This document shows, piece after piece, positions 2,862 to 63,060 of a stretch of DNA of 64,000 bases (position 1 is the stretch's first letter; every line of letters begins with the position of its first letter). The notes beneath the pieces are model-generated. The model had not been told where the DNA came from, made no database searches, and saw nothing but the letters and a program-made list of their open reading frames with translations. The stretch covers positions 15,333 through 79,332 of the forward strand of contig JACTMI010000008.1 of NCBI GenBank assembly GCA_014584695.1, read 5' to 3'. The DNA is from Acidobacteriota bacterium. GTDB lineage: Bacteria; Acidobacteriota; Thermoanaerobaculia; Multivoradales; JAGPDF01. Made by a program: the position numbers and the translations under genes.

Positions 2862-3029
2862 GGCGGGAGCTCCCCTTCGCAGTCCCCGATAGTCTAGTAA
2901 GCCAGGACGCCGAAATTGAACCCCTCCTGCTAGGCTGTTCCCGGCATTCTCCTAAAACACTTAACTCTCACCAGCAAGAGACACAACGATCTATCGTCCA
3001 GATCCACGCCACGCCCCAGCACGCCCCCG

Positions 3030-3660
3030 CATGCCCCCGTACGCCACCTCCATGCCACTCCACGCCGCTCTGCTCCGCTCCTTCCTGACCAGACTGCGCG
3101 CCGGCGACACCGAGGTGCCTGCTGCAGCGAGAAGCAAAGGCCTTCTGTTGAAGGGGGTGGCCTCCGCCACGAACGCGGCGAGCTCGCAACGGCTGCTGCA
3201 GCGGCGACACTCCTCCCCTTCTATGGAGCTTCTGAGCGCTTCCTCCCCAGCGAGCGCTCAGCTCGGAGAGCGACCCTCCCGAGGTGCGGTGGCTCGAGCG
3301 CAGGTGGTCGAGCAGGCGAAAAGCAAAAGCGTGCTGTTGAAGGGGGTGACCTCCGTCACGAAGGCGGCGAGCTCGCAACGGCTGCCGCAACGGCGACACT
3401 CCTCCCCTTCTATGGAGCTTCTGAGCGCTTCCTCCCCAGCGAGCGCTCAGCCCGGAGAGCGACCCTCCCGAGGTGCGGTGGCTCGAGCGCAGGTGGTCGG
3501 GCAGGCGAAAAGCAAAAGCGTGCTGTTGAAGGGGGTGACCTCCGTCACGACGGCGGCGAGCTCGCAACGGCTGCTGCAGCGGCGACACTCCTCCCCTTCT
3601 ATGGAGCTTCTTCATCGCCCGGCCCACCGATCCGTCCGTGCCCGCAGCGGAGGGCTGTGA
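3030..3660. repeat. Tandem repeat locus 1: about 3.4 copies of a ~180-bp unit (same family as loci at 35994, 62526 and 50555; inverted orientation here)
   Basis: Motif ctatggagcttctgagcgcttcctcccc recurs at 3231/3411/3591 (period 180). The reverse complement matches the locus-3 unit core (agaagctccatagaagggg...gtcacccccttcaacag). A GA-rich tract (3690-3790) flanks it. Confidence 0.8.
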
Positions 3661-3790
3661 CTCACCGTTGGGCAAGAGATGAGCGATGAAGGAAAGTCAG
3701 GTGATCAGGAATGCGGGGGAGTTGGAGAGTAGGAAAGAAGGCAGGTAGGAAAGTGGGCAGGTAGGAAAGAAGGCAGGGAAGGGGGAGCTC

Positions 3791-4291
3791 ATGAGCCCGG
3801 AGTCGGCACGGCTGCTCGATGGGACGGGATGGCGGATTCTGGAGGAGCTGCAGGAGGACGGGCGGATGACGTTCACGGAGCTCGGCCGGCGGGTGGGGCT
3901 GTCGACGCCGGCGGTGGCGGAACGGGTCCGGCAGCTCGAGGCGGCCGGGATCGTGCGCGGCTTTCGCGCCGAAATCGATCTCGCCCGCGTCGGCTTGCCG
4001 GTCCTCGCGGTGGTCCGCATGAGCGTCGTGGGCGACGTGCTCGGACGAATCACCGCCGTCGCCCAGGAGCTTCCCGAAGTGCTCGAGTGCCACCGCGGCA
4101 CCGGCGCCGACTCCTTCATCATGAAGGTGGCGGTCGCCTCGGTCGAACAGCTCGAGCGCTTGATCGACCGCCTGACCCCCTTCGGCACCACCTCGACCTC
4201 GATCGTCCTCTCGTCACCGGTGCCGCGGCGGACGCTGCGGGCCACGACGCCGCCAGCTCCCGCCCACCCACCGCCTCGCCGCCGACGCTGA
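3791..4291 (+). CDS. Lrp/AsnC-family transcriptional regulator
   Basis: 166 aa; an N-terminal HTH (LDGTGWRILEELQEDGRMTFTELGRRVGLSTPAVAERVRQLEAAGIV) plus a RAM/ACT-like C-terminal domain. ATG at 3791 follows GGGGGAG. Confidence 0.85.
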   Translation: MSPESARLLDGTGWRILEELQEDGRMTFTELGRRVGLSTPAVAERVRQLEAAGIVRGFRAEIDLARVGLPVLAVVRMSVVGDVLGRITAVAQELPEVLECHRGTGADSFIMKVAVASVEQLERLIDRLTPFGTTSTSIVLSSPVPRRTLRATTPPAPAHPPPRRRR

Positions 4292-4374
4292 ACGCGACCG
4301 CTCGCCGCCGTCGCCCCGCCCCCCATCCTCCATCCCCCCTCCCCGCTCCTCGCTCCTCGATCCCCGCGTGGGGC

Positions 4375-4403
4375 TTGACAGGGGGCGGGAGCCCGCCTAT
4401 CAT
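4375..4403 (+). promoter_or_regulatory. Sigma70-type promoter TTGACA-N17-TATCAT placed 10 nt upstream of the TolC-like ATG (near-leaderless transcript)
   Basis: TTGACA at 4375-4380, a 17-nt GC-rich spacer, TATCAT at 4398-4403, and ATG at 4414. It is preceded by a ~55-nt C/T-rich tract (4315-4367). Confidence 0.5.
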
Positions 4404-32676: not shown

Positions 32677-34721
32677 TCCGCCGATTGCGCCACCGGCAGC
32701 TCGCCGCCAGCGTCCTGATCGCCGCCGCGGCGGTCACCAGCGGCTCGGCGCTGCGCGCCCAGGCGAGTGGCATCGAAGTCCGGTCGATCGGCGGCGCCCG
32801 CCCCGAGGCCGCCGCCCTCTTGGCGCACGGCGGCAGCGGTGGACCCCTGCGCACCCAGATCGTCGCTCTGCCCGCTGGCCACGGCCGCGTGGCCGTGCCG
32901 GTCCTGGTTGGCATCGAGCTCGACGGCGAGAGCCTGCTCGCCGGTCAACCGTCGGCGCGGCTGGGCGTCGAGCTCACCCTCTACGCGGTCGGTCTGGGCG
33001 GCACGATCGGCGCCGCGATCGCCGAGGGAATCGCCGTGGATCTCGGCCGCCATGGTGGCGCGATCGAGGCCGGAGGACTGCGTTGGCTGGGCAGCCTGGA
33101 GCTCGCACCCGGCGACTGGTCGATCCGGGCGCTGGTGCGCAACCGCCAGACCGGGGCGTTCGGCCTCCGTGAGACCCGGCTGGTCCTCACCACGCCTGGC
33201 GCCGAGGCGCAGGCGACCTTCCTCGCCCCGGTCGTGGCCGCCGCCGACGAGTGGATCGAGGCGCGCTCCCCGGCGCTCGCCCCGGCGGCCGCCGGGGTCC
33301 TGACGGAGATCGGCGGCCCGCCCTCGGCGCTGCCGGTGTTGGCCCTCGACGCGCCCGCGCGACTCTGGGCCTGGATCGGCGGCGGCGAGGCGGGTCCGCT
33401 CGCGGCGCGCCTGGTCGACGGCCTCGGCCGGCCGGCGGGCGAGCCGACCTTGACCGCGCGGGCCGGCCGCCGGCTGGCGCCCGGTCTCGCCGCGACGGAG
33501 CTCGAGATGGCCGCGCCGGGGGGCCGCGCGGGCCTGCGCGATCTCATCCTGACGACGCACGATGGCGAGCTCGTCTCGCTGCCGCACCGTTGTCTCGCCC
33601 GTCCGGCCGACGAGGCCGTGGCCTGGAACGCGGTCGCGCGTGTCGCCCTGGCGCGGGCCGCCGCCGAGGAGAGTCCGGAGGCGCCGGCGCCGGTGGCGCC
33701 CCCCGCCTCCAAGGAGGACCTCGAGCGGTTCCGCACCGCCTATCGCGAGGCTTGGCGACGCTACGCGGCAGGGGACCCGGAGGGCGGCGTCGCCGCGCTC
33801 CAGGTCTTCGAGTCCGCCGCGCTCGAAGGCGATCCCAAGCGGGCCATGGGCTGGCTGGCGCAGGCCGATCGCTCGCTGCTGTCCGACATCGCCAAGAGCC
33901 GCCCCGGCGCGCTATTGCCGCTCGCGCTCTTCTACCAGGAGCTCTTCCGGGCGCATCTCGCGGCGGGCCGGATCGGCCTCGCGCGGCGCGCGGAGATGGT
34001 GACGCAATCGCTGCTCGTCGACAGCGCCAGCCGCGCGGCCACCGACGAGGAGCGCGAGATCGTCGCCTCGGCACTCGAGAGCCTCGCCGCCGACCTGCTC
34101 GACGCCCAGGCGCCGAACCGGGCCGCCGCGCTGCTCGAGCGGTCGACCTCCCTGGCGCCGAACCGGGCCGGCTCCTGGGTGGCGCTGGGGGCCCTCCACG
34201 AACGCAACCGCGAGCTCGACCCGGCCCGGCGCGCACTCGACCGCGCGCTCGCCGCCGCCCCCCGGCACCGCGAGGCCCGCCTTCGCCGCGCCCTGATCGA
34301 GGTTCGGGCCGGGTCGGCCAGGCGCGGAGTCGAGCTGCTCGACCAGCTGATCGCCGAGCCGGCCCTGGATTGGATCGCGGTCATCGCCAACCAGGAGCGG
34401 GCTCGACAGCACCTCGCGGCGGGCGACCTGACAGCGGCGGCTTCGCTGCTGGAGAATGCCGCGCGTCGCTTCCCCGCCGAGCCGTCGCTCGAGACCGCGC
34501 TCGCCTACACTCTCGATCGAGCTGGCCGGCGCGCCGAGGCGCGCGCCGCGGTCGAGCGCGCCACCCGGGCTGGTCGCAGCTTCGACATCGCGCCGCGCCA
34601 GCACTACGCGCGCTTCCCCGTGCAGGCTCTGGCCGCAGGTCGCGCCACGGTCGAGGAGCGCGGTTTCCTCGCCCGCTCCGAGTTGCTCGCCGCGCTCGGT
34701 GGCGGCGGAGGTCCGGCGTGA
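32673..34721 (+). CDS. Secreted TPR-repeat protein (682 aa)
   Basis: ATGA overlap with the upstream gene. N-terminal signal; the C-terminal ~300 aa are Ala/Leu/Arg-rich TPR-like helical repeats (ALDRALAAAPRHREARLRRALIEVRAG...). Confidence 0.6.
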   Translation: MIRRLRHRQLAASVLIAAAAVTSGSALRAQASGIEVRSIGGARPEAAALLAHGGSGGPLRTQIVALPAGHGRVAVPVLVGIELDGESLLAGQPSARLGVELTLYAVGLGGTIGAAIAEGIAVDLGRHGGAIEAGGLRWLGSLELAPGDWSIRALVRNRQTGAFGLRETRLVLTTPGAEAQATFLAPVVAAADEWIEARSPALAPAAAGVLTEIGGPPSALPVLALDAPARLWAWIGGGEAGPLAARLVDGLGRPAGEPTLTARAGRRLAPGLAATELEMAAPGGRAGLRDLILTTHDGELVSLPHRCLARPADEAVAWNAVARVALARAAAEESPEAPAPVAPPASKEDLERFRTAYREAWRRYAAGDPEGGVAALQVFESAALEGDPKRAMGWLAQADRSLLSDIAKSRPGALLPLALFYQELFRAHLAAGRIGLARRAEMVTQSLLVDSASRAATDEEREIVASALESLAADLLDAQAPNRAAALLERSTSLAPNRAGSWVALGALHERNRELDPARRALDRALAAAPRHREARLRRALIEVRAGSARRGVELLDQLIAEPALDWIAVIANQERARQHLAAGDLTAAASLLENAARRFPAEPSLETALAYTLDRAGRRAEARAAVERATRAGRSFDIAPRQHYARFPVQALAAGRATVEERGFLARSELLAALGGGGGPA

Positions 34722-35902
34722 ATCGTCCGCCGGCACGCGGCCTTCGCGTCACGGCGGCCGCCGGGTCGCTGATGGCGGCGGCGCTGCTCGCGGCGCCCGC
34801 CTTCGAGGTCGCCATCGTCGAACCGCTCGCCGGCCAAGCGGCCTTCGGCCCCACCGACTTCGCGGCCGAGGTGCGCGGCGGCGAGGCACGCTGGGTCGAG
34901 TTCTACGTCGACGGCCGCAAGGTCGGCGAGCGAACGGCGCCGCCCTACCGGATCGAGGTCGATCTCGGCGAGGAGAACCTCGAGCGCCGATTCCGCGTCG
35001 TCGCCCACGGCGAGGCCGGCGCCGTCAGCGAGGCCGAGCTGGTGCTGCCGCGGATCCGCGTCGACGACCGCATCGAGCTGCCGCTGCAGCAGCTCTACGT
35101 CACCGCGAGCCGCGCCGGCGCGCCGGCGCACGACCTGGCGCGCGGGCACTTCCGGGTCTTCGACGGCGGCGTCTCGCAGCGCCTGGTGACGTTCGAGCGC
35201 GGCGACGTGCCGCTCGCCGCCGTGCTGCTGCTCGACAGCTCGCTTTCGATGCGCGGCGCCCCGCTCGCCGCCGCATTGGCCGGCGCGCGCGCTTTCGCCG
35301 CCGGCATGGCGCCGCTCGACGAAGCGATGCTGCTGCTCTTCTCGGACCAGGTGATCCACCGCTCGGCTTTCGGCTCGGATCCGGCGACGCTCACCGGCGG
35401 CCTGACGGGGGCCGCCGCGCGCGGCGGCTCGGCGATCAACGACCACCTGTTCCTGGCGCTCAAGGAGCTCGAGCGCCGGCAGGGGCGGCGGGTCGCGATC
35501 CTGCTCTCGGACGGCATCGACGTCGACAGCTTGCTCTCCGCGCGCGAGCTCGAGCAGTCGATCGGCAGGAGCCCGGCGCTGCTCTACTGGATCCGTCCGG
35601 TCAGCAAGGCCGCCGGCCCACTCTGGCACCGCTCGGCTTGGCGCGACTTCAAGGAACACGACGCCGAGGTCAAGGCGCTCGAGCGGATGGTAGCTCGCAG
35701 TGGTGGGCGCATCGTCCCGATCGCCCGCATCGAGCAGGCCGAGGAGGCCTTCCGCGAGATCTTGGCCGAGCTGCGCAACCAGTACGTCCTCGGCTACTAC
35801 CCCAGCGTCGCCCGCCACGACGGCTCCTGGCGCCGCATCCGCATCGACCTCGCCCTCCCCGGCATCGACCTGCGCGCCCGCGAGGGCTACTACGACGACT
35901 GA
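34718..35902 (+). CDS. Secreted VWA-domain protein, short paralog 3 (394 aa)
   Basis: GTGA overlap with the upstream gene. MIDAS-like VLLLDSSLSMRG; LLSDGIDVDS; ends ...NQYVLGYYP... as in paralogs 1 and 2. Confidence 0.7.
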   Translation: MNRPPARGLRVTAAAGSLMAAALLAAPAFEVAIVEPLAGQAAFGPTDFAAEVRGGEARWVEFYVDGRKVGERTAPPYRIEVDLGEENLERRFRVVAHGEAGAVSEAELVLPRIRVDDRIELPLQQLYVTASRAGAPAHDLARGHFRVFDGGVSQRLVTFERGDVPLAAVLLLDSSLSMRGAPLAAALAGARAFAAGMAPLDEAMLLLFSDQVIHRSAFGSDPATLTGGLTGAAARGGSAINDHLFLALKELERRQGRRVAILLSDGIDVDSLLSARELEQSIGRSPALLYWIRPVSKAAGPLWHRSAWRDFKEHDAEVKALERMVARSGGRIVPIARIEQAEEAFREILAELRNQYVLGYYPSVARHDGSWRRIRIDLALPGIDLRAREGYYDD

Positions 35903-35993
35903 CCGCAACCCCAGCGGCCGCCGACGGGGATCCCGTCCGCTCGAATCAAGCAGAGAGCGAAACAGAAGAAGAAGAAAATGGAAAAGAAAGCAA

Positions 35994-36366
35994 AGCTCCA
36001 GTTAAGGGCAGGTGTAGGGAGCGATCTCGTTGAGGCGAAGCGGTTTGCCGTCCGTGAAGAAGAGAAGAGCAACAGCTCCAGTTAAGGGTAGGTGAATGGA
36101 ACGTCCTCGCTGAGCCGAAGCGGTCTGCCGTCCGTGAAGAAGAGAAAAGCAACAGCTCCAGTTAAGGGTAGGTGAGTGGAGCGTCCTCGCTGCGGCGAGG
36201 CGGATTGCCGTCCGAGAAGAAGAGAAGAGGCAACAGCTCCAGTTAAGGGTAGGTGAGTGGAGCGTCCTCGCTGCGGCGAGGCGGATTGCCGTCCGTGAAG
36301 AAGAGAAAAGGCAACAGCTCCAGTTAAGGGTAGGTGAGTGGAGCGTCCTCGCTGCGGCGAGGCGTG
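35994..36366. repeat. Tandem repeat locus 2: about 4.6 copies of an 80-81-bp unit (agctccagttaagggtaggtgagtggagcgtcctcgctgcggcgaggcggattgccgtccgtgaagaagagaaaaggcaac)
   Basis: Units start at 35994, 36074, 36154, 36235 and 36316. It shares the AGCTCCA(T/G)T(G/A)AAGGG core and the GAAGAAGAGAAAAG motif with loci 1 and 3. A period that is not a multiple of 3 argues against coding. Confidence 0.8.
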
Positions 36367-36446
36367 CGGGCGAGCCCGACGTCGTCGAATCCCCGCCGGC
36401 GCGACCGCGCGCTGACCGGGCCACAGAGCGTGCGGTCCGGCAGAGG

Positions 36447-36720
36447 CCCCCCTCCCCCTCCCCCTCCCCCTCCCCCTCCCCTTCCCCTTCCCGTTCCCCT
36501 TCGCCTGCCCCTTCTCATTCCCCATTCCGCTCCTTTTCCCACCTTTCACCGCCCCCGCTACCGCGCAGCTCAACTCAGTCAACAACGCCCCCCCTCCCAC
36601 CCCTTCTATGGAAGCCTTTTCTTTTCTCTTCTTTTCTCTTCTCCGCTCTTCTCTTCTCTTCTCTTCTCTGCGCCTCTCCTGACTCTTCTTCCACCTCCTT
36701 CCCTTACTCTCTTCTCGCTC
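36447..36720. repeat. Polypyrimidine tract of about 275 nt beginning with (CCCCCT)5(CCCCTT)2; a G-rich quadruplex-capable complement on the minus strand
   Basis: The plus strand is >90% C/T from 36447 to ~36720. It also contains an inverted partial copy of the repeat core (cccttctatggaagc = reverse complement of gcttccatagaaggg) at about 36598-36680. Confidence 0.85.
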
Positions 36721-36936
36721 CGGACTCCTAGCGTCTGCCTCGTGGCTCTATTCCGCTGCAGCGGCAGGGGTGGGGGGTGTTCGGCGAGACCAGGCGCGAC
36801 TGCGGCGGGGGGGCGGGCGGGGTCGGAAGAAAGGGCTTTCGACCCCGCAGAGGGGCGGCTCGGCCCGGCGGGCAACTCCCGGGCGAGCGCGACGTAACTA
36901 CCCTGGCCATCCACTCCAGAAGGGAGCGATCCGAAC

Positions 36937-38121
36937 ATGAGGAAGAGGAAGAGGTCCAGGTCCGCCGCGACGTCGTCCGTATTTGCAACCGGTCTCCTGT
37001 TCGCGCTGGCCGTGGCGGTCGGCGCCGCGCCGCCGGCGGGGGCTCAAGCGGTGACACTGCCGCCGTCGGGAGACAACCAGAAGGCTTCGGTCACCCAGCA
37101 CCTCGGGCTGGTCGAGGTGACCGTCGACTACTCCAGCCCGGATGTGCACGCCCCGGACGGCACCGACCGGCGGGGAAAGATCTGGGGGCAGCTCGTCCCC
37201 TTCGGCTGGCACCAGGAGGCCTTCGGCACCTGCGGCCAGATGTGCCCCTGGCGCGCCGGAGCCAACGAGAACACCGTCGTCCGCTTCAGCCACGACGTCC
37301 AGGTCGAGGGCCAGCCGCTCGCGGCCGGCGCCTACGGTCTCCACATGGTGCCGGGCGAGAATGAGTGGATCGTCATCTTCTCGAACAACTCGTCCTCGTG
37401 GGGCCACTACTTCTACAGCGAGGCCGAGGACGCCCTGCGGGTCACCGTCAAGGCGGAGAAGGCTCCCTACCGGGAGTGGCTGACCTACGAGTTCACCGAC
37501 CGCCAGATGGACAAGGCGACCCTGGCGCTGGCCTGGGAGGAGCTGGTGGTGCCGATCCGGATCGCCGTTCCGAATGCGATCGACCTCTATGCCGCGAACC
37601 TCGGGCGCGAGCTCCGCAGCGCCCCCGGCTTCGACTGGCGCGGCTGGCAGCAATCGGCGCAGATGCTCGTCGACCGCAAGGTCCGCCCCGAGCTGGCCGA
37701 GCAGTGGGCCAGCAACGCCGTGTCGCTCCAGTTCATCGGCCAGGAAAACTGGCAGACGCTGCGCACCCTGGCGGCGGCGCAGCGCGCCAACGGCAAGGAC
37801 GCGGCGGCGGAGGCGACGATGGCGCGCGCGCTCGTCCACCCGACGGCCGGACCGGTCGACATCTACCAGTACGCCCGGCCACTGATCGCCCAGGGCCAGC
37901 CCGAAAGAGCGCTCGCGGTCTTCCAGAAGGTGGCCGAGCGCTTCCCGGGCGCCTGGCCGACCGACGTCGGAATCGCCCGCGCCTACTCGGCGCTCGGCCG
38001 CTATGCCGAAGCGATCCCGCACCTCGAAGCCGCGCTCGCGATCGCGCCGGACGATCTGAACCGGAGCAACATCGAGCGGATGCTCGGCCGGTTGAAGAAG
38101 GGCGAGGACATCAACAAGTGA
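36937..38121 (+). CDS. DUF2911 domain protein with C-terminal TPR region, secreted
   Basis: Signal peptide. The family signature is YSSPDVHAPDGTDRRGKIWGQLVPFG..WRAGANENTVVRFSHDVQVEGQPLAAGAYGL. RBS AGAAGGGAG. Confidence 0.7.
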   Translation: MRKRKRSRSAATSSVFATGLLFALAVAVGAAPPAGAQAVTLPPSGDNQKASVTQHLGLVEVTVDYSSPDVHAPDGTDRRGKIWGQLVPFGWHQEAFGTCGQMCPWRAGANENTVVRFSHDVQVEGQPLAAGAYGLHMVPGENEWIVIFSNNSSSWGHYFYSEAEDALRVTVKAEKAPYREWLTYEFTDRQMDKATLALAWEELVVPIRIAVPNAIDLYAANLGRELRSAPGFDWRGWQQSAQMLVDRKVRPELAEQWASNAVSLQFIGQENWQTLRTLAAAQRANGKDAAAEATMARALVHPTAGPVDIYQYARPLIAQGQPERALAVFQKVAERFPGAWPTDVGIARAYSALGRYAEAIPHLEAALAIAPDDLNRSNIERMLGRLKKGEDINK

Positions 38122-48526: not shown

Positions 48527-50317
<1,791 letters not shown>

Positions 50318-50372
50318 CGGGCTTCGAGACCCACGCCCCTTCGCGGCGCCAGCTTCGAACTCCGCACAAAAT

Positions 50373-50418
50373 GGGGACAGGCACGTAATAAGTATTGCGT
50401 GCCTGTCCCCGTTTCTCG
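50373..50418 (+). terminator. Rho-independent terminator hairpin, potentially bidirectional
   Basis: ggggacaggcacg-taataagtattg-cgtgcctgtcccc (13-bp perfect stem) followed by gtttctcg. On the opposite strand it is preceded by attttgtg (U-rich). It lies 56 nt after the ACAD stop. Confidence 0.7.
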
Positions 50419-50554
50419 CGGAGGAAGAACCGCGAAGCGCCGGCCTCGCTGGTGCGGCTCCACTCGAGGACGCACCTGTCGCCCTCGCCTCGCCGGACAC
50501 GAGCCCGGCTTTTCCATTCTCTGGAGCTTCTTGGAGGCCGCGAGGCCGAGGCAG

Positions 50555-50600
50555 CTTCGTTTCCGCGAGGAGAAGCTCCATCGAAGGAAAGACCACTACA
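50555..50600. repeat. Solitary copy of the repeat-family core (cgaggagaagctccatcgaaggaaag) with an upstream inverted partner (ctggagcttcttgg)
   Basis: Matches the AGAAGCTCCAT(T/C)GAAGG core of loci 1-3. It lies in a ~490-bp non-coding gap between convergent genes. Confidence 0.5.
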
Positions 50601-50909
50601 GAGCATCCGCAGCGGATCACGGGAGCCCTGGCCTTGGCCGCGACCTCGGCCGCGACCGAGGCTGCGCTCGACCTCCGTTGCCACGCCGAGGCCGCCGCGC
50701 AGCGCCGCGCCACCTCTGCCACGGTGGTCACGATCTGGGCTGTTCTCTTCTAGGGCGCTTTTCTGACGTCGCCACCCCGATGCAGTTCAGCACCTGCGCG
50801 GTGACACCCCCTGGACGGAAGCGATCTCCATCCAGGGGGGAACGGCGGCCTCGCGGGCGCGGGTGTGGGGTGAGGGTGGTCGGCCGCTCTCTCGACGCGC
50901 GCGCCCGGT

Positions 50910-62374: not shown

Positions 62375-62525
62375 GCGACCACTCCTCCGTGTCTCCGCTC
62401 CAGGCACACACTCTCCGGGAGTGAACCCTCGGAGCGAACCGAGAGGAGAGGACGATGGCGATCCGGATCGTGCAGCTCGGCAGTCCGCGGGCCGCGGGCC
62501 CGGCTGGTACGGCCAGGTGCGATGA

Positions 62526-63060
62526 CGGCTGCGACCGAAGAGAAAAGCTCCATTGAAGGGAGCAGTAGTCGCCGCCGATTCGAGCGTTGCGAGTTCGCCA
62601 CCGCCGTTCCTGTAGTCACCCCCCTTCAACAGAACGCCTTTCACTTCGCCTCGCCCCCATCCGGAGCTCCGTCGGAGCCGCAGATGCAACAGTTGCGACC
62701 AGGTGCGACAGCCGCGGCGACCGAAGCGAGAAGCTCCATTGAAGGGAACGTGTGTCGCCGTCGAGCCGCGCTTTGCGAGCTCGCCACCACCGTGCCTGGG
62801 GTCACCCCCATCAACAGAACGCTTTTCTCTACGACTCGCCCCCATCCAGAGCTCCGTCGGAGCCGCAAGCGCGGCTGGTGCGACCAAGTGCATCGTCCGC
62901 GGCGACGGAAGCGAAAAGCTCCATTGAAGGGAGCGGTAGTCGCCGCCGGTTCGAGCGTTGCGAGCTCGCCACCGCCATTTCAGGAGTCACCCCCTTCAAC
63001 AGAACGCTTTTCTCTGTGCCTCGTCCTCCACGCACGCTCCCGTCGGTCCAGAGGCGCCGC
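62526..63060. repeat. Tandem repeat locus 3: about 3 copies of a ~180-bp unit, each a MITE-like module with ~20-nt imperfect terminal inverted repeats (AGAAAAGCtccaTTGAAGGG ... CCCTTCAAcagaacGCTTTTCT)
   Basis: Unit starts (gaccgaag(a/c)gagaagctccattgaaggg) at about 62531, 62718 and 62895. Periods are 187 and 177, not multiples of 3. Confidence 0.8.

Follow-up and report, generated by a model that had tools for sequence, protein, structure and literature searches.

An insertion of about 963 bp between VWA and DUF2911 genes of an Acidobacteriota bacterium probably derives from a single member of a hitherto undescribed inverted-end repeat family

The DNA analysed here (the window) is a stretch of 64,000 nucleotides from an Acidobacteriota genome, and its GC content of 0.71 agrees with the high-GC setting described in an earlier note on this sequence. 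The region of interest, repeat locus 2, lies where that note had placed it, between a VWA gene and a DUF2911 gene. The upstream gene encodes a VWA_2-domain protein of 394 aa (34718..35902, plus strand; Pfam VWA_2, E = 1.4e-10), is the final gene of a TPR/VWA cluster and has its stop codon at 35902; the identical 394-aa protein was also called in Logan contigs. The downstream gene starts at 36937 and encodes a DUF2911 + TPR protein, likewise of 394 aa (36937..38121, plus strand; Pfam DUF2911, E = 1.9e-39), with homologues in Thermoanaerobaculia and Ca. Polarisedimenticolia. Its 5' region (36866..36936, plus strand; local alignment and fold) is conserved in relatives and is predicted to fold into a hairpin, CUCC...GAAGGGAG, that covers a Shine-Dalgarno-like sequence. 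Comparison with syntenic relatives marks everything from the VWA stop codon to this conserved region, about 963 nt, as lineage-specific extra DNA (35903..36865, unstranded).

On its left side the extra DNA carries a purine-rich leader (35945..35994, plus strand, by direct reading) that forms the outer flank of the left end motif; it reads gaagaagaagaaaatggaaaagaaag at 35965-35990, as described earlier, and has an AT skew of +0.68, with GC down to 0.50-0.56. The tandem array has 4.7 units of 80/81 bp (~35987..36364, plus strand; TRF and repeat search), close to the 4.6 direct 80-bp units counted before, with 91% matches and a TRF score of 582-610. Its five copies begin at 35989, 36069, 36149, 36230 and 36311, and every unit includes both the purine run GAAGAAGAGAARAG and the end motif GCAACAGCTCCAGTTAAGGG. 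Over the length they have in common, units 3-5 show 98-100% identity, and units 1-2 match unit 3 at 81-89%, the range for whole 80-bp units being 78-100%. The unit ending given in the earlier note has to be corrected: the local unit ends in GCTCCAGTTAAGGG, and GCTCCATAGAAGGG is the motif of repeat locus 1.

A non-repetitive GC-rich core (36365..36446, unstranded; ~80% GC by direct reading and composition) separates the two arms and has no BLAST-level similarity elsewhere within the 64-kb window. From 36447 onward the reported (CCCCCT)5(CCCCTT)2 forms part of a degenerate CCCCYT hexamer array (36447..36528, plus strand; TRF period 6, 13.3 copies), and the long C/T-rich stretch said to follow the hexamers is indeed there. 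The right end motif is inverted (36588..36627; repeat search and motif scans), its minus strand reading GAAAAGAAAAGGCTTCCATAGAAGGGGTGGGAGGGGGGG, and the string cccttctatggaagccttttcttttctcttc is present at 36601-36631. The outer C/T tract (36615..36722, plus strand; TRF and run lengths) contains a (TTCTC)n array at 36619-36669 (TRF period 5; a period-15 row reaches 36678) and corresponds, in expanded form, to the purine leader on the left. A short GC-rich hairpin with 13-nt arms and a 6-nt loop (36817..36848, plus strand; repeat search) lies in the G-rich tail of the insertion. The two halves of the locus are modules of the same kind in convergent arrangement, each combining a purine run with an end motif and a G-rich inner flank, read on opposite strands, and the left and right ends of the outer pair agree at 23/28 positions.

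The inverted copy of the unit end that had been noticed before is present once, but it matches the family consensus described below better than the local unit, to which the best inverted match is 21 nt at 86%. Moreover, the 22 nt of the right end, CTTCTATGGAAGCCTTTTCTTT, are identical to the right end of an element in a metagenome contig (L084). The proposal that the whole ~800 bp form a large imperfect inverted repeat did not hold, as shuffles of matched composition align equally well: the top score for a local alignment between the left arm and the reverse complement of the right arm was 29, and 230/300 block shuffles, which preserve local composition, scored at least as high. The fold of the 801-nt region is also close to that of dinucleotide shuffles (z = -1.15 for RNA and -1.18 for DNA). 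Specific complementarity is confined to the end motif of ~21-28 nt, with arms 301-640 nt apart. Cruciform extrusion requires near-perfect arms and a short loop; locus 2 does not have long near-perfect arms around a short spacer, its best candidate arms being 21 nt long, 86% identical and separated by 455 nt. Because the complementarity is limited to a short end motif with distant arms, cruciform extrusion is implausible here, and one giant hairpin or cruciform is rejected on the fold z-scores and the comparison of arm alignments with shuffles.

The strand asymmetry of the locus exceeds chance, the 275-nt stretch having a purine fraction of 0.142, ~8.6 SD from the window mean, although its pyrimidine content is 85.8% and exceeds the claimed 90% only over ~85-100 nt. 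Three homopyrimidine runs (46, 30 and 24 nt) at locus 2 are the only homopurine or homopyrimidine runs of at least 18 nt in 64 kb, and the longest such run in 200 shuffles was 25. The first is uninterrupted at 36447-36492 and has mirror arms of 18 nt; the runs of 30 and 24 nt lie in the outer C/T tract, where the mirror arms are 19 nt (both scored with at most one mismatch). The minus strand of the hexamer array reads (GGGGGA)n and provides the sole strong G-quadruplex motif (G4+N1-3) of the 64 kb, at 36466-36487. The 46-nt run has the sequence features that H-DNA and a G-quadruplex would require. Of the two structures proposed earlier, H-DNA has its prerequisites at the level of sequence (pure 46- and 30-nt runs with mirror arms of 18-19 nt), whereas a cruciform is implausible. 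The most purine-skewed and the most pyrimidine-skewed tracts of the window both adjoin loci of the repeat family.

The locus had been treated as unique, but it belongs to a dispersed repeat family that has three further loci in the window, giving a density of four loci in 64 kb. The end motif of this family consists of a purine run and AAGCTCCATNGAAGGG, and recurs as inverted pairs 99-202 bp apart from core to core. Each family unit has a purine run and then the core AAGC-TYCAWNGAAGGG(G), facing an inverted copy, with variable DNA between. The 16-nt core occurs 13 times in the window with at most three mismatches, at four intergenic loci (0.21 expected), and a second end type occurs five times (0.07 expected). 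Loci 1, 2 and 3 are arrays. Locus 1 (3127..3611, minus strand; TRF and motif scans) has 2.6 units of 189 bp, each an inverted end-motif pair 60 nt apart with ~75 nt of flank, and locus 3 (62501..63015, plus strand; TRF and motif scans) has 2.8 units of 185 bp with an inverted pair at the same spacing; in both, the ends are in convergent orientation with a spacing of exactly 60 nt. Locus 4 (50455..50765, plus strand; motif scans, the start at 50455 being read by eye) consists of two adjacent degenerate elements between convergent genes. The core-to-core length is 99-202 bp in ten elements and 632 bp at locus 2, where the internal arrays account for the difference. Two observations count against placing locus 2 in this family: its tie to the other loci is limited to end motifs of ~16-28 nt, the interior being unlike theirs, and its left end motif GCTCCAGTTAAGGG is a divergent variant.

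The family is also found beyond the window. An Acidobacteria MAG (JAFNAE010000253, L005) carries three copies over 3.5 kb, and family ends occur in the high-GC metagenome contigs L084, L101, L106, L119, L122 and L090; copies of the element are seen in L119 and in the syntenic relative L132 as well as in L005, L084 and L101. The identity of the terminal inverted repeats is 25/26 in L101, 16/17 in L084 and 25/30 at locus 3, beside the 23/28 of the outer pair of locus 2. Members were sought by a scan of genome contigs with a two-part pattern, which gave one true relative (L005) and five other matches judged to be chance (two of them, from Bryobacteraceae, after inspection), and by a metagenome scan with a 16-base pattern, which gave at least about seven true members among the matches listed, most others being chance. 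True members were picked by a GC of ~0.7 and purine flanks, and a match in L051 was set aside as it lies inside a long ORF. Scanning a viral collection for the motif gave chance matches only, and blastn against plasmids gave none. Rfam showed no match at the gathering score over the whole window and only noise in relaxed scans of loci 1-3 (E >= 0.7), and a literature search for the motif returned just unrelated matches in eukaryotic papers. Candidate target-site duplications are present at 3 of ~10 elements (CCGGC at the first L005 copy, CCG in L084 and GCG in L101) and none is evident at wL3, wL4b, L119 and L132, an inconsistency that counts against mobility of the family, as does the failure to find a cognate transposase or RAYT among the 20 window ORFs scanned.

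Presence of the element differs at the orthologous VWA-DUF2911 site. The spacer is 76 nt long without an element in L130 and L131, where the conserved block abuts the VWA stop codon, 384 nt with one element in L132, and 1034 nt in the window, which thus has ~963 extra bases compared with the element-free relatives. These relatives are 73% identical in protein, a distance at which gain and loss look alike. The comparison of the DUF2911 5' region relies on local alignment, the global spacer alignment being uninformative.

The tract itself is not a mis-assembly, because independent short-read assemblies from other runs (L001, L002, L003 and L159) reproduce 36335-36937 base for base. The hexamer run is likewise the same in all independent assemblies seen, which gives no hint of phase-variable length. 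Unit number is a different matter. Locus 2 has 4.7 units in the window and 2.7 in two spanning contigs, from samples SRR21855933 and SRR18243712, at least nine others breaking at the identical units, and this difference may reflect collapse by k-mer assemblers. At locus 1, strains of 98.4-99% identity have a single element instead of 2.6 units and are 378 bp shorter, a difference to which assembler collapse of units may again contribute.

We consider it probable that locus 2 is a lineage-specific insertion of ~963 bp that arose from a single member of this family, an undescribed group of small, non-coding interspersed repeats with inverted ends (MITE-like or REP-dimer/BIME-like) in Thermoanaerobaculia-type Acidobacteriota. 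The left end with ~55 nt of interior would have been amplified in tandem to 4.7 units. As each unit holds one purine run, unequal exchange or slippage between two such runs ~80 nt apart is the likely route, and the near identity of units 3-5 suggests that the last rounds of amplification were recent. A CCCCYT hexamer would have expanded inside the element, ~60 nt in from the G-rich inner flank of the right end, and the outer pyrimidine run of the right end would have grown as (TTCTC)n. There is a precedent in REP clusters, where dimers of the repeat recur along with their flanking DNA (PMC3733652). On this account the family would be mobile, slippage would have produced the arrays, and locus 2 would need no function of its own. 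Its likely side effects are that DUF2911 is set ~1 kb apart from the VWA operon, that the DNA is prone to non-B forms, and that short-read assemblies break.

A role at the RNA level is unlikely, although several observations point towards it. The family could be co-transcribed, its paired ends forming a long hairpin, preceded by an A/G run and followed by a C/U run, that acts as terminator, attenuator or mRNA stabiliser, as proposed for REP/BIME; or the purine (ARN-like) runs and the Shine-Dalgarno-like GAAGGGAG hairpin could, as a decoy or sponge, draw off ribosomes, Hfq or similar binding proteins, with the array multiplying the sites. The end motif, with orientation read by eye, is co-directional with the flanking genes in 5/5 same-direction gene pairs (wL2, wL3, L119, L090 and L132; chance ~0.03, one-sided), a hint of transcript-level selection that would be unexpected for a purely selfish element. 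Elements begin ~50-125 nt past stop codons, and a small CUCC/GGRG hairpin with a variable loop (N) is predicted in 13/18 end motifs, weak as it is (4-6 bp, -1.4 to -12.5 kcal/mol). In three lineages the ribosome-binding region native to DUF2911 is predicted to take the same CUCC...GAAGGGAG shape, and the locus 3 unit folds better than its shuffles (minus strand z = -3.2, plus strand z = -2.0). However, the units of locus 1 show no such advantage over shuffles (z = -0.1 to -0.3), and no hairpin is kept across the five copies of the 80-nt unit of locus 2 (z = -0.95). No conserved promoter and no U-tract terminator were found, a scan of 35700-37100 giving no promoter and one terminator-like site, under the shuffle expectation. 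Intergenic regions with elements include divergent, tandem and convergent ones, and near-perfect terminal repeats such as those of L101 suit recognition at the DNA level as well as RNA pairing. It is more doubtful still that the family is a lineage-specific modular functional element, not a selfish one, in which the co-transcribed purine tract and GAAGGGAG hairpin serve as terminator/insulator or, through their multiple sites, as a decoy that captures ribosomes or an RNA chaperone, with arrays and expansions tuning its strength.

We also regard as improbable a non-B-DNA regulatory element in which (CCCCCT)n/(GGGGGA)n and (TTCTC)n would adopt H-DNA, i-motif or G-quadruplex forms under supercoiling, and would set or phase-vary DUF2911 expression or insulate it from the VWA operon. 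Locus 2 does contain an uninterrupted pyrimidine mirror repeat of 46 nt as well as the sole G4+N1-3 motif of the window, the C/T tracts lie ~220-490 nt upstream of the DUF2911 start, and quadruplex-forming G-rich simple repeats are known from other bacteria (PMC4692102). But the tracts are missing in 3/3 syntenic relatives, so the DUF2911 gene does not need them; the hexamer run has the same length in every independent assembly seen; and the complementarity between arms is low-complexity matching only. Very unlikely is the reading in which tandem units encode small peptides or form a CRISPR-like or iteron-like protein-binding array. A GTG after TAAGGGTAGG opens a 26-codon frame in units 3-4, and the locus 1 period, at 189 bp, is divisible by three; yet no ORF runs consistently through the locus 2 array, since units alternating between 80 and 81 nt do not keep the frame and unit 1 stops immediately (GTG TAG), and the open frame of locus 3 has a third-position GC of ~0.65 (hand count) against 0.85-0.95 in real genes. 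Small coding ORFs were rejected on these grounds. The locus 2 array has no unique spacers, because entire units are 91% identical and not just short repeats, which speaks against a CRISPR array, and no cas, rep or par genes lie nearby. Integron attC sites, iterons or centromeres and Tn7-like ends were rejected as well, the units being identical throughout, the elements singly dispersed and partner genes not found nearby. That locus 2 is an assembly artefact is hardly credible: short-read contigs do break within the array, nine of them ending at 36178 and two beginning at 36335, and the two spanning ones have just 2.7 units, but all except the identical-unit count, the whole C/T tract included, is matched at 100% identity in many separate sequencing runs.

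Among known repeat systems, the insertion-derived family resembles REP dimers (REPINs) and BIMEs in its short intergenic units, putative stem-loops, which form inverted pairs at fixed spacing (60 nt in loci 1 and 3) and are spread over many intergenic regions. In loci 1 and 3, end A alternates with end B 60 nt away every 185-189 bp, and like REP elements the units occur singly or in clusters where the dimer and its flanking DNA are reiterated in tandem (PMC3733652; PMC2817692). REP sequences have a conserved GTAG or CGTC tetranucleotide at one terminus (PMC3733652), whereas this family has no such head, its ends carrying a purine run instead; GTAG follows the motif in only 2/3 units of locus 3 and is missing after it at locus 1, at locus 2 and in L005. 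In addition, the amplified copies of locus 2 are direct and not alternating, and the interior of the family varies from 60 to ~190 nt. REP/BIME systems are further marked by an associated RAYT (a Y1 transposase) and by >100 copies per genome. Bacterial MITEs, such as the Correia elements of Neisseria and ERIC, are small, non-coding, intergenic and bounded by terminal inverted repeats. The family shares with them elements of 100-200 bp that are non-coding and intergenic, with multiple dispersed copies, terminal inverted repeats of ~20-26 bp (25/26 in L101), and presence or absence at orthologous sites in several related genomes. It differs in having no consistent target-site duplication, no autonomous partner among the 20 window ORFs scanned, two distinguishable end types (A and B), and purine/pyrimidine runs of variable length outside the conserved core.

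Minisatellites of the MIRU VNTR type, reportedly described from mycobacteria by Supply et al. in 1997, offer a third comparison. Here the likeness lies in tandem arrays of related sequence with 50-190-bp units at several intergenic loci, in head-to-tail intergenic units (4.7 x 80/81 bp with 91% identity at locus 2), in orientation with neighbouring genes, and in a unit number that is apparently strain-variable (1 vs 2.6 at locus 1 and 2.7 vs 4.7 at locus 2), though assembly collapse may account for the difference. The units of different loci, however, have only the end motif in common, and the family does not have overlapping small ORFs that couple flanking genes. Finally, locus 2 resembles simple repeats that form H-DNA or G-quadruplexes in its mirror-symmetric pyrimidine runs of 46 and 30 nt with (GGGGGA)n opposite, and differs in that its tracts are secondary expansions in or beside a repeat element of one lineage, known here from their sequence.

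Taken as a whole, locus 2 appears to be an undescribed but fairly ordinary kind of repetitive DNA, and it opens no long-standing question. The family was found without description in Rfam, in the literature searched by motif, and in plasmid and viral collections, and its host belongs to a poorly studied, mostly uncultured class of Acidobacteriota. Locus 2, where strand asymmetry peaks within the 64 kb and which has the one strong G-quadruplex motif there, would be a convenient natural substrate for tests of non-B DNA in a bacterium of 71% GC. Among the Logan contigs read, nine end and two start at the edges of identical units, so short-read assemblies and MAGs from this group may be broken up by the family. 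Should the differences in unit number be real, the arrays would be VNTR typing markers for an organism seen in dozens of sequencing runs.

Direct reading of positions 35500-37200, together with Tandem Repeats Finder, confirms the composite layout that the earlier note described for locus 2, which lies between the genes of a VWA_2 protein and a DUF2911+TPR protein. Beyond the stop codon of the VWA gene (35902), a purine-rich leader (35945-35994) leads into a tandem array of 4.7 copies of an 80/81-bp unit (35987-36364; 91% matches, score 582-610). The units start at 35989, 36069, 36149, 36230 and 36311 and match the reference copy of the repeat search at, in order, 81%, 89%, 100%, 98% and 78% identity, the fifth being incomplete and breaking off at about 36364. 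Directly after the array come an 82-nt core of about 80% GC, which separates the left and right arms of the locus, then (CCCCCT)5(CCCCTT)2 within a degenerate hexamer array of 13.3 copies (36448-36528), and a C/T-rich stretch followed by a (TTCTC)n array (36619-36669); the string cccttctatggaagccttttcttttctcttc occupies 36601-36631. The initial observation is thus largely right, and the inverted match to the unit end that it included exists (at best 21 nt at 86%), but the local unit carries GCTCCAGTTAAGGG and not GCTCCATAGAAGGG.

Locus 2 has relatives within the window. The motif AAGCTCCATTGAAGGG, with at most 3 mismatches, occurs 13 times against 0.21 expected, and the matches sit in four intergenic loci: locus 2, locus 1 (3127-3611; 2.6 units of 189 bp), locus 3 (62501-63015; 2.8 units of 185 bp) and locus 4 (about 50455-50765). 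In each unit of loci 1 and 3, end A (a purine run plus AAGCTCCATWGAAGGG) and end B (CCCCTTCAACAGNACGCTTTTC plus a pyrimidine run) face one another exactly 60 nt apart, and the remainder of the 185-189-bp unit is flanking DNA copied with the pair. Core-to-core length ranges from 99 to 202 bp over 10 complete elements with unrelated interiors, and the outermost ends of locus 2 lie 632 bp apart. Strains with 98.4-99% identity to the window (L156 9450-10000, L157 and L158) hold a single element at locus 1 and are shorter by exactly 378 bp (2 x 189), which suggests that unit number varies there between strains.

The surroundings of these loci have features of their own. Adjoining locus 1 is a tract (3674-3789) richer in purines than any other in the window (84% over 100 nt), with three copies of the 16-nt purine-rich unit GTAGGAAAGAAGGCAG at 3729-3777. 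Immediately after these copies come the Shine-Dalgarno sequence and then, at 3791, the start codon of an AsnC/Lrp-type regulator gene. On the opposite side, 3.6 copies of the C-rich decamer CACGCCCCCG (3009-3070) precede a minus-strand, 890-aa Beta_elim_lyase-domain gene, about 150-210 nt ahead of its start at 2861. Downstream of the AsnC-type gene, positions 4300-4403 hold a C-rich tract (CCCCATCCTCCATCCCCCCTCCCCGCTCC...) and, after it, a sigma-70-like promoter close to consensus (TTGACA at 4375-4380, 17 nt, TATCAT at 4398-4403) that precedes an outer-membrane efflux (OEP) gene. Locus 4 is flanked by two strong hairpins, GGGGACAGGCACG...CGTGCCTGTCCCC with an AT-rich loop (50370-50415), just past a stop codon at 50317, and ACCCCCTGGA...TCCAGGGGGG (50803-50850), which look like terminators of convergent genes.

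The family is also found in other organisms. A two-part pattern applied to species-representative genomes, a set from which the window's own genome is absent, gave six stretches, of which one, contig L005 of an Acidobacteria MAG, is a true relative; its three end motifs within 3.5 kb amount to a complete element, placed between convergent genes, and a tandem pair where the contig ends. The other five were judged chance (two were inspected, both from Bryobacteraceae). A 16-base pattern scan of metagenomes listed mostly chance matches, and among these matches we recognised about seven genuine members by GC near 0.7 and purine flanks (contigs L084, L090, L101, L106, L119 and L122, with L051 doubtful). 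For instance, L101 holds a 110-bp element with terminal inverted repeats identical at 25/26 positions and a perfect 21-bp core, AGAAAAAGCTCCAGAGAAGGG, and the right end found in L084 has 22 identical bases (CTTCTATGGAAGCCTTTTCTTT) in common with window positions 36604-36625. At 700-1000 of L106, one A-type end is followed by three tandem units of about 100 nt, each ending in the B-like motif CCCTTCTAGGGTCCTTTCGCC, which shows that tandem amplification of one element end also occurs in other genomes.

By its DUF2911 homologues the organism belongs to Acidobacteriota, Thermoanaerobaculia / Ca. Polarisedimenticolia, with only 73-75% protein identity to the nearest of them. The gene order TPR, VWA, DUF2911, PBP1 is kept in three syntenic contigs. 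Two of them (L130 and L131) have an element-free spacer of 76 nt from the VWA stop to the DUF2911 start; in the third (L132) the spacer is 384 nt and contains exactly one family element (GGCTCCAACAAATAGGGG ... CTTTCAACAGAGCGCCTTTC). The final 70 nt or so ahead of the DUF2911 start codon form a block conserved across all three lineages, which in L130 directly adjoins the stop codon. Judged from the short spacers and the conserved block, about 963 nt of the window (35903-36865) appear not to be ancestral to this spacer.

On balance, we regard locus 2 as probably a lineage-specific copy of an undescribed interspersed repeat, altered by tandem amplification and simple-sequence expansion. The two arms, each read on its own strand, are the same kind of module: the left arm (plus strand) runs from a purine run through the end core to a G-rich flank, and the right arm (minus strand) from a long AG run (36722 back to 36615) through the core GGCTTCCATAGAAGGGG to GTGGGAGGGGGGG, then about 60 nt of unique sequence and (GGGGAA/GGGGGA)n. 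Two purine runs spaced about 80 nt from each other may have given rise to the 80-bp array by slippage or unequal exchange, from which the one purine run (GAAGAAGAGAARAG) in each unit is expected. Units 3-5 are nearly identical and units 1-2 diverged, suggesting that amplification was stepwise and in part recent. The hexamer and pentamer arrays would have grown by ordinary simple-sequence expansion from those parts of the right arm that are G-rich and purine-rich, and the architecture is explainable without any function.

That the whole region forms a large imperfect inverted repeat, as first proposed, proves wrong. Local alignment of the left arm (35935-36400) with the reverse complement of the right arm (36401-36740) gives a best score of 29, reached in 17/300 whole-arm dinucleotide shuffles and in 230/300 shuffles within 40-nt blocks that keep the local purine bias; the aligned segment is purine run against purine run, nothing more. 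Folding of the 801-nt region is likewise close to that of shuffles (z = -1.15 as RNA, -1.18 as DNA). Cruciform extrusion requires near-perfect arms and a short loop. Specific inverted similarity at locus 2 is confined to the end motif (23/28 with gaps), with arms 301-640 nt apart, and a cruciform is therefore implausible.

The strand asymmetry reported for the locus is indeed far beyond chance, although the pyrimidine content over 275 nt is 85.8% and not above 90%. Homopurine or homopyrimidine runs of at least 18 nt occur in the window only at locus 2 (46, 30 and 24 pyrimidines), the longest run across 200 shuffles is 25 nt, and the 275-nt purine fraction (0.142) lies about 8.6 SD off the window mean. 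Mirror arms of 18-19 nt in the 46-nt run (36447-36492) and the 30-nt run (36615-36644) supply what H-DNA requires of a sequence, and at that level the potential is real. G-quadruplex motifs lie on the minus strand of 36454-36499, including one (36466-36487) with four G4+ runs joined by loops of 1-3 nt, the sole motif of this kind in the window. These tracts are missing in all relatives compared, and the hexamer run is the same in every assembled copy seen, with no sign of length variation, which argues against a conserved or phase-variable regulatory role.

Mis-assembly of the tract, raised as a possible objection, is not borne out. In a public assembly collection, whose index lists 73 blocks for the DUF2911 protein and 29 for the VWA protein, contigs of different sequencing runs match the window at 100% identity over the unique flanks and the entire C/T tract, so the tracts of locus 2 are real. 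Logan short-read contigs from many runs break precisely at two positions: nine end exactly at 36178, 30 nt into unit 3, and two begin at 36335. Both are borders of the near-identical units 3-5, where a k-mer graph would branch, and the family may therefore systematically break up assemblies of the source organism. Two contigs (L003 and L159) cross the locus with 2.7 units instead of 4.7, reflecting either polymorphism or assembler collapse.

There is a small chance that the family acts at the level of RNA or transcripts. Such a role is kept alive by the orientation of the A ends, which point with the genes in 5/5 readable same-direction gene pairs (locus 2, locus 3, L119, L090 and L132), weak evidence (about 0.03, one-sided) of some transcript-level constraint. 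A CUCC/GGRG hairpin with free loop position (N of ATNGAAGG) is predicted in 13/18 end motifs, and the units of locus 3 fold well (z = -3.2 and -2.0). Those of locus 1 do not, the 80-nt unit of locus 2 has no hairpin kept over its five copies (z = -0.95), and Rfam gave no family match. The DUF2911 gene shows the same CUCC...GAAGGGAG shape in its ribosome-binding region, and does so in three lineages that are 73% identical in protein; the small hairpin lies at 36905-36936 in the window, 3550-3580 in L130 and 3965-4000 in L132, and could sequester the Shine-Dalgarno sequence. In L132 this region closely resembles the family end motif (AAGCGCTTCCATCCGAAGGGAG). From this likeness, and from the GAAGGG(G)AG that the lyase, AsnC-type and DUF2911 genes have ahead of their start codons, it follows that the end motif contains a Shine-Dalgarno-like sequence. 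Coding was rejected: in unit 1 of locus 2 a stop directly follows the GTG (GTG TAG), periods of 80/81 nt do not keep the frame, and third-position GC of the open frame in locus 3 is about 0.65 (hand count) against 0.85-0.95 in genes. As for mobility, the 20 window ORFs scanned include no transposase, short direct repeats flank three elements (CCGGC, CCG, GCG) and not the others, and searches of viral contigs, plasmids and the literature found nothing for the family.

Compared with known repeats, the family resembles REP dimers and BIME clusters in its inverted, putatively stem-loop-forming units at fixed spacing and in pairs that are single or reiterated together with flanking DNA, as described for those clusters (PMC3733652; PMC2817692). 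Unlike them, it has no defining GTAG/CGTC head. Like MITEs, its elements are small, non-coding and dispersed, have terminal inverted repeats, and at an orthologous site are present in some genomes and absent from others, but duplications of the target site are not consistent among them and they have no known partner transposase. Its arrays also resemble MIRU-type minisatellites. We therefore file it as a new family, belonging to no named one, among the small interspersed intergenic repeats, a class already known. The family is useful for annotating and assembling genomes, and could help to type strains, in an under-studied phylum.
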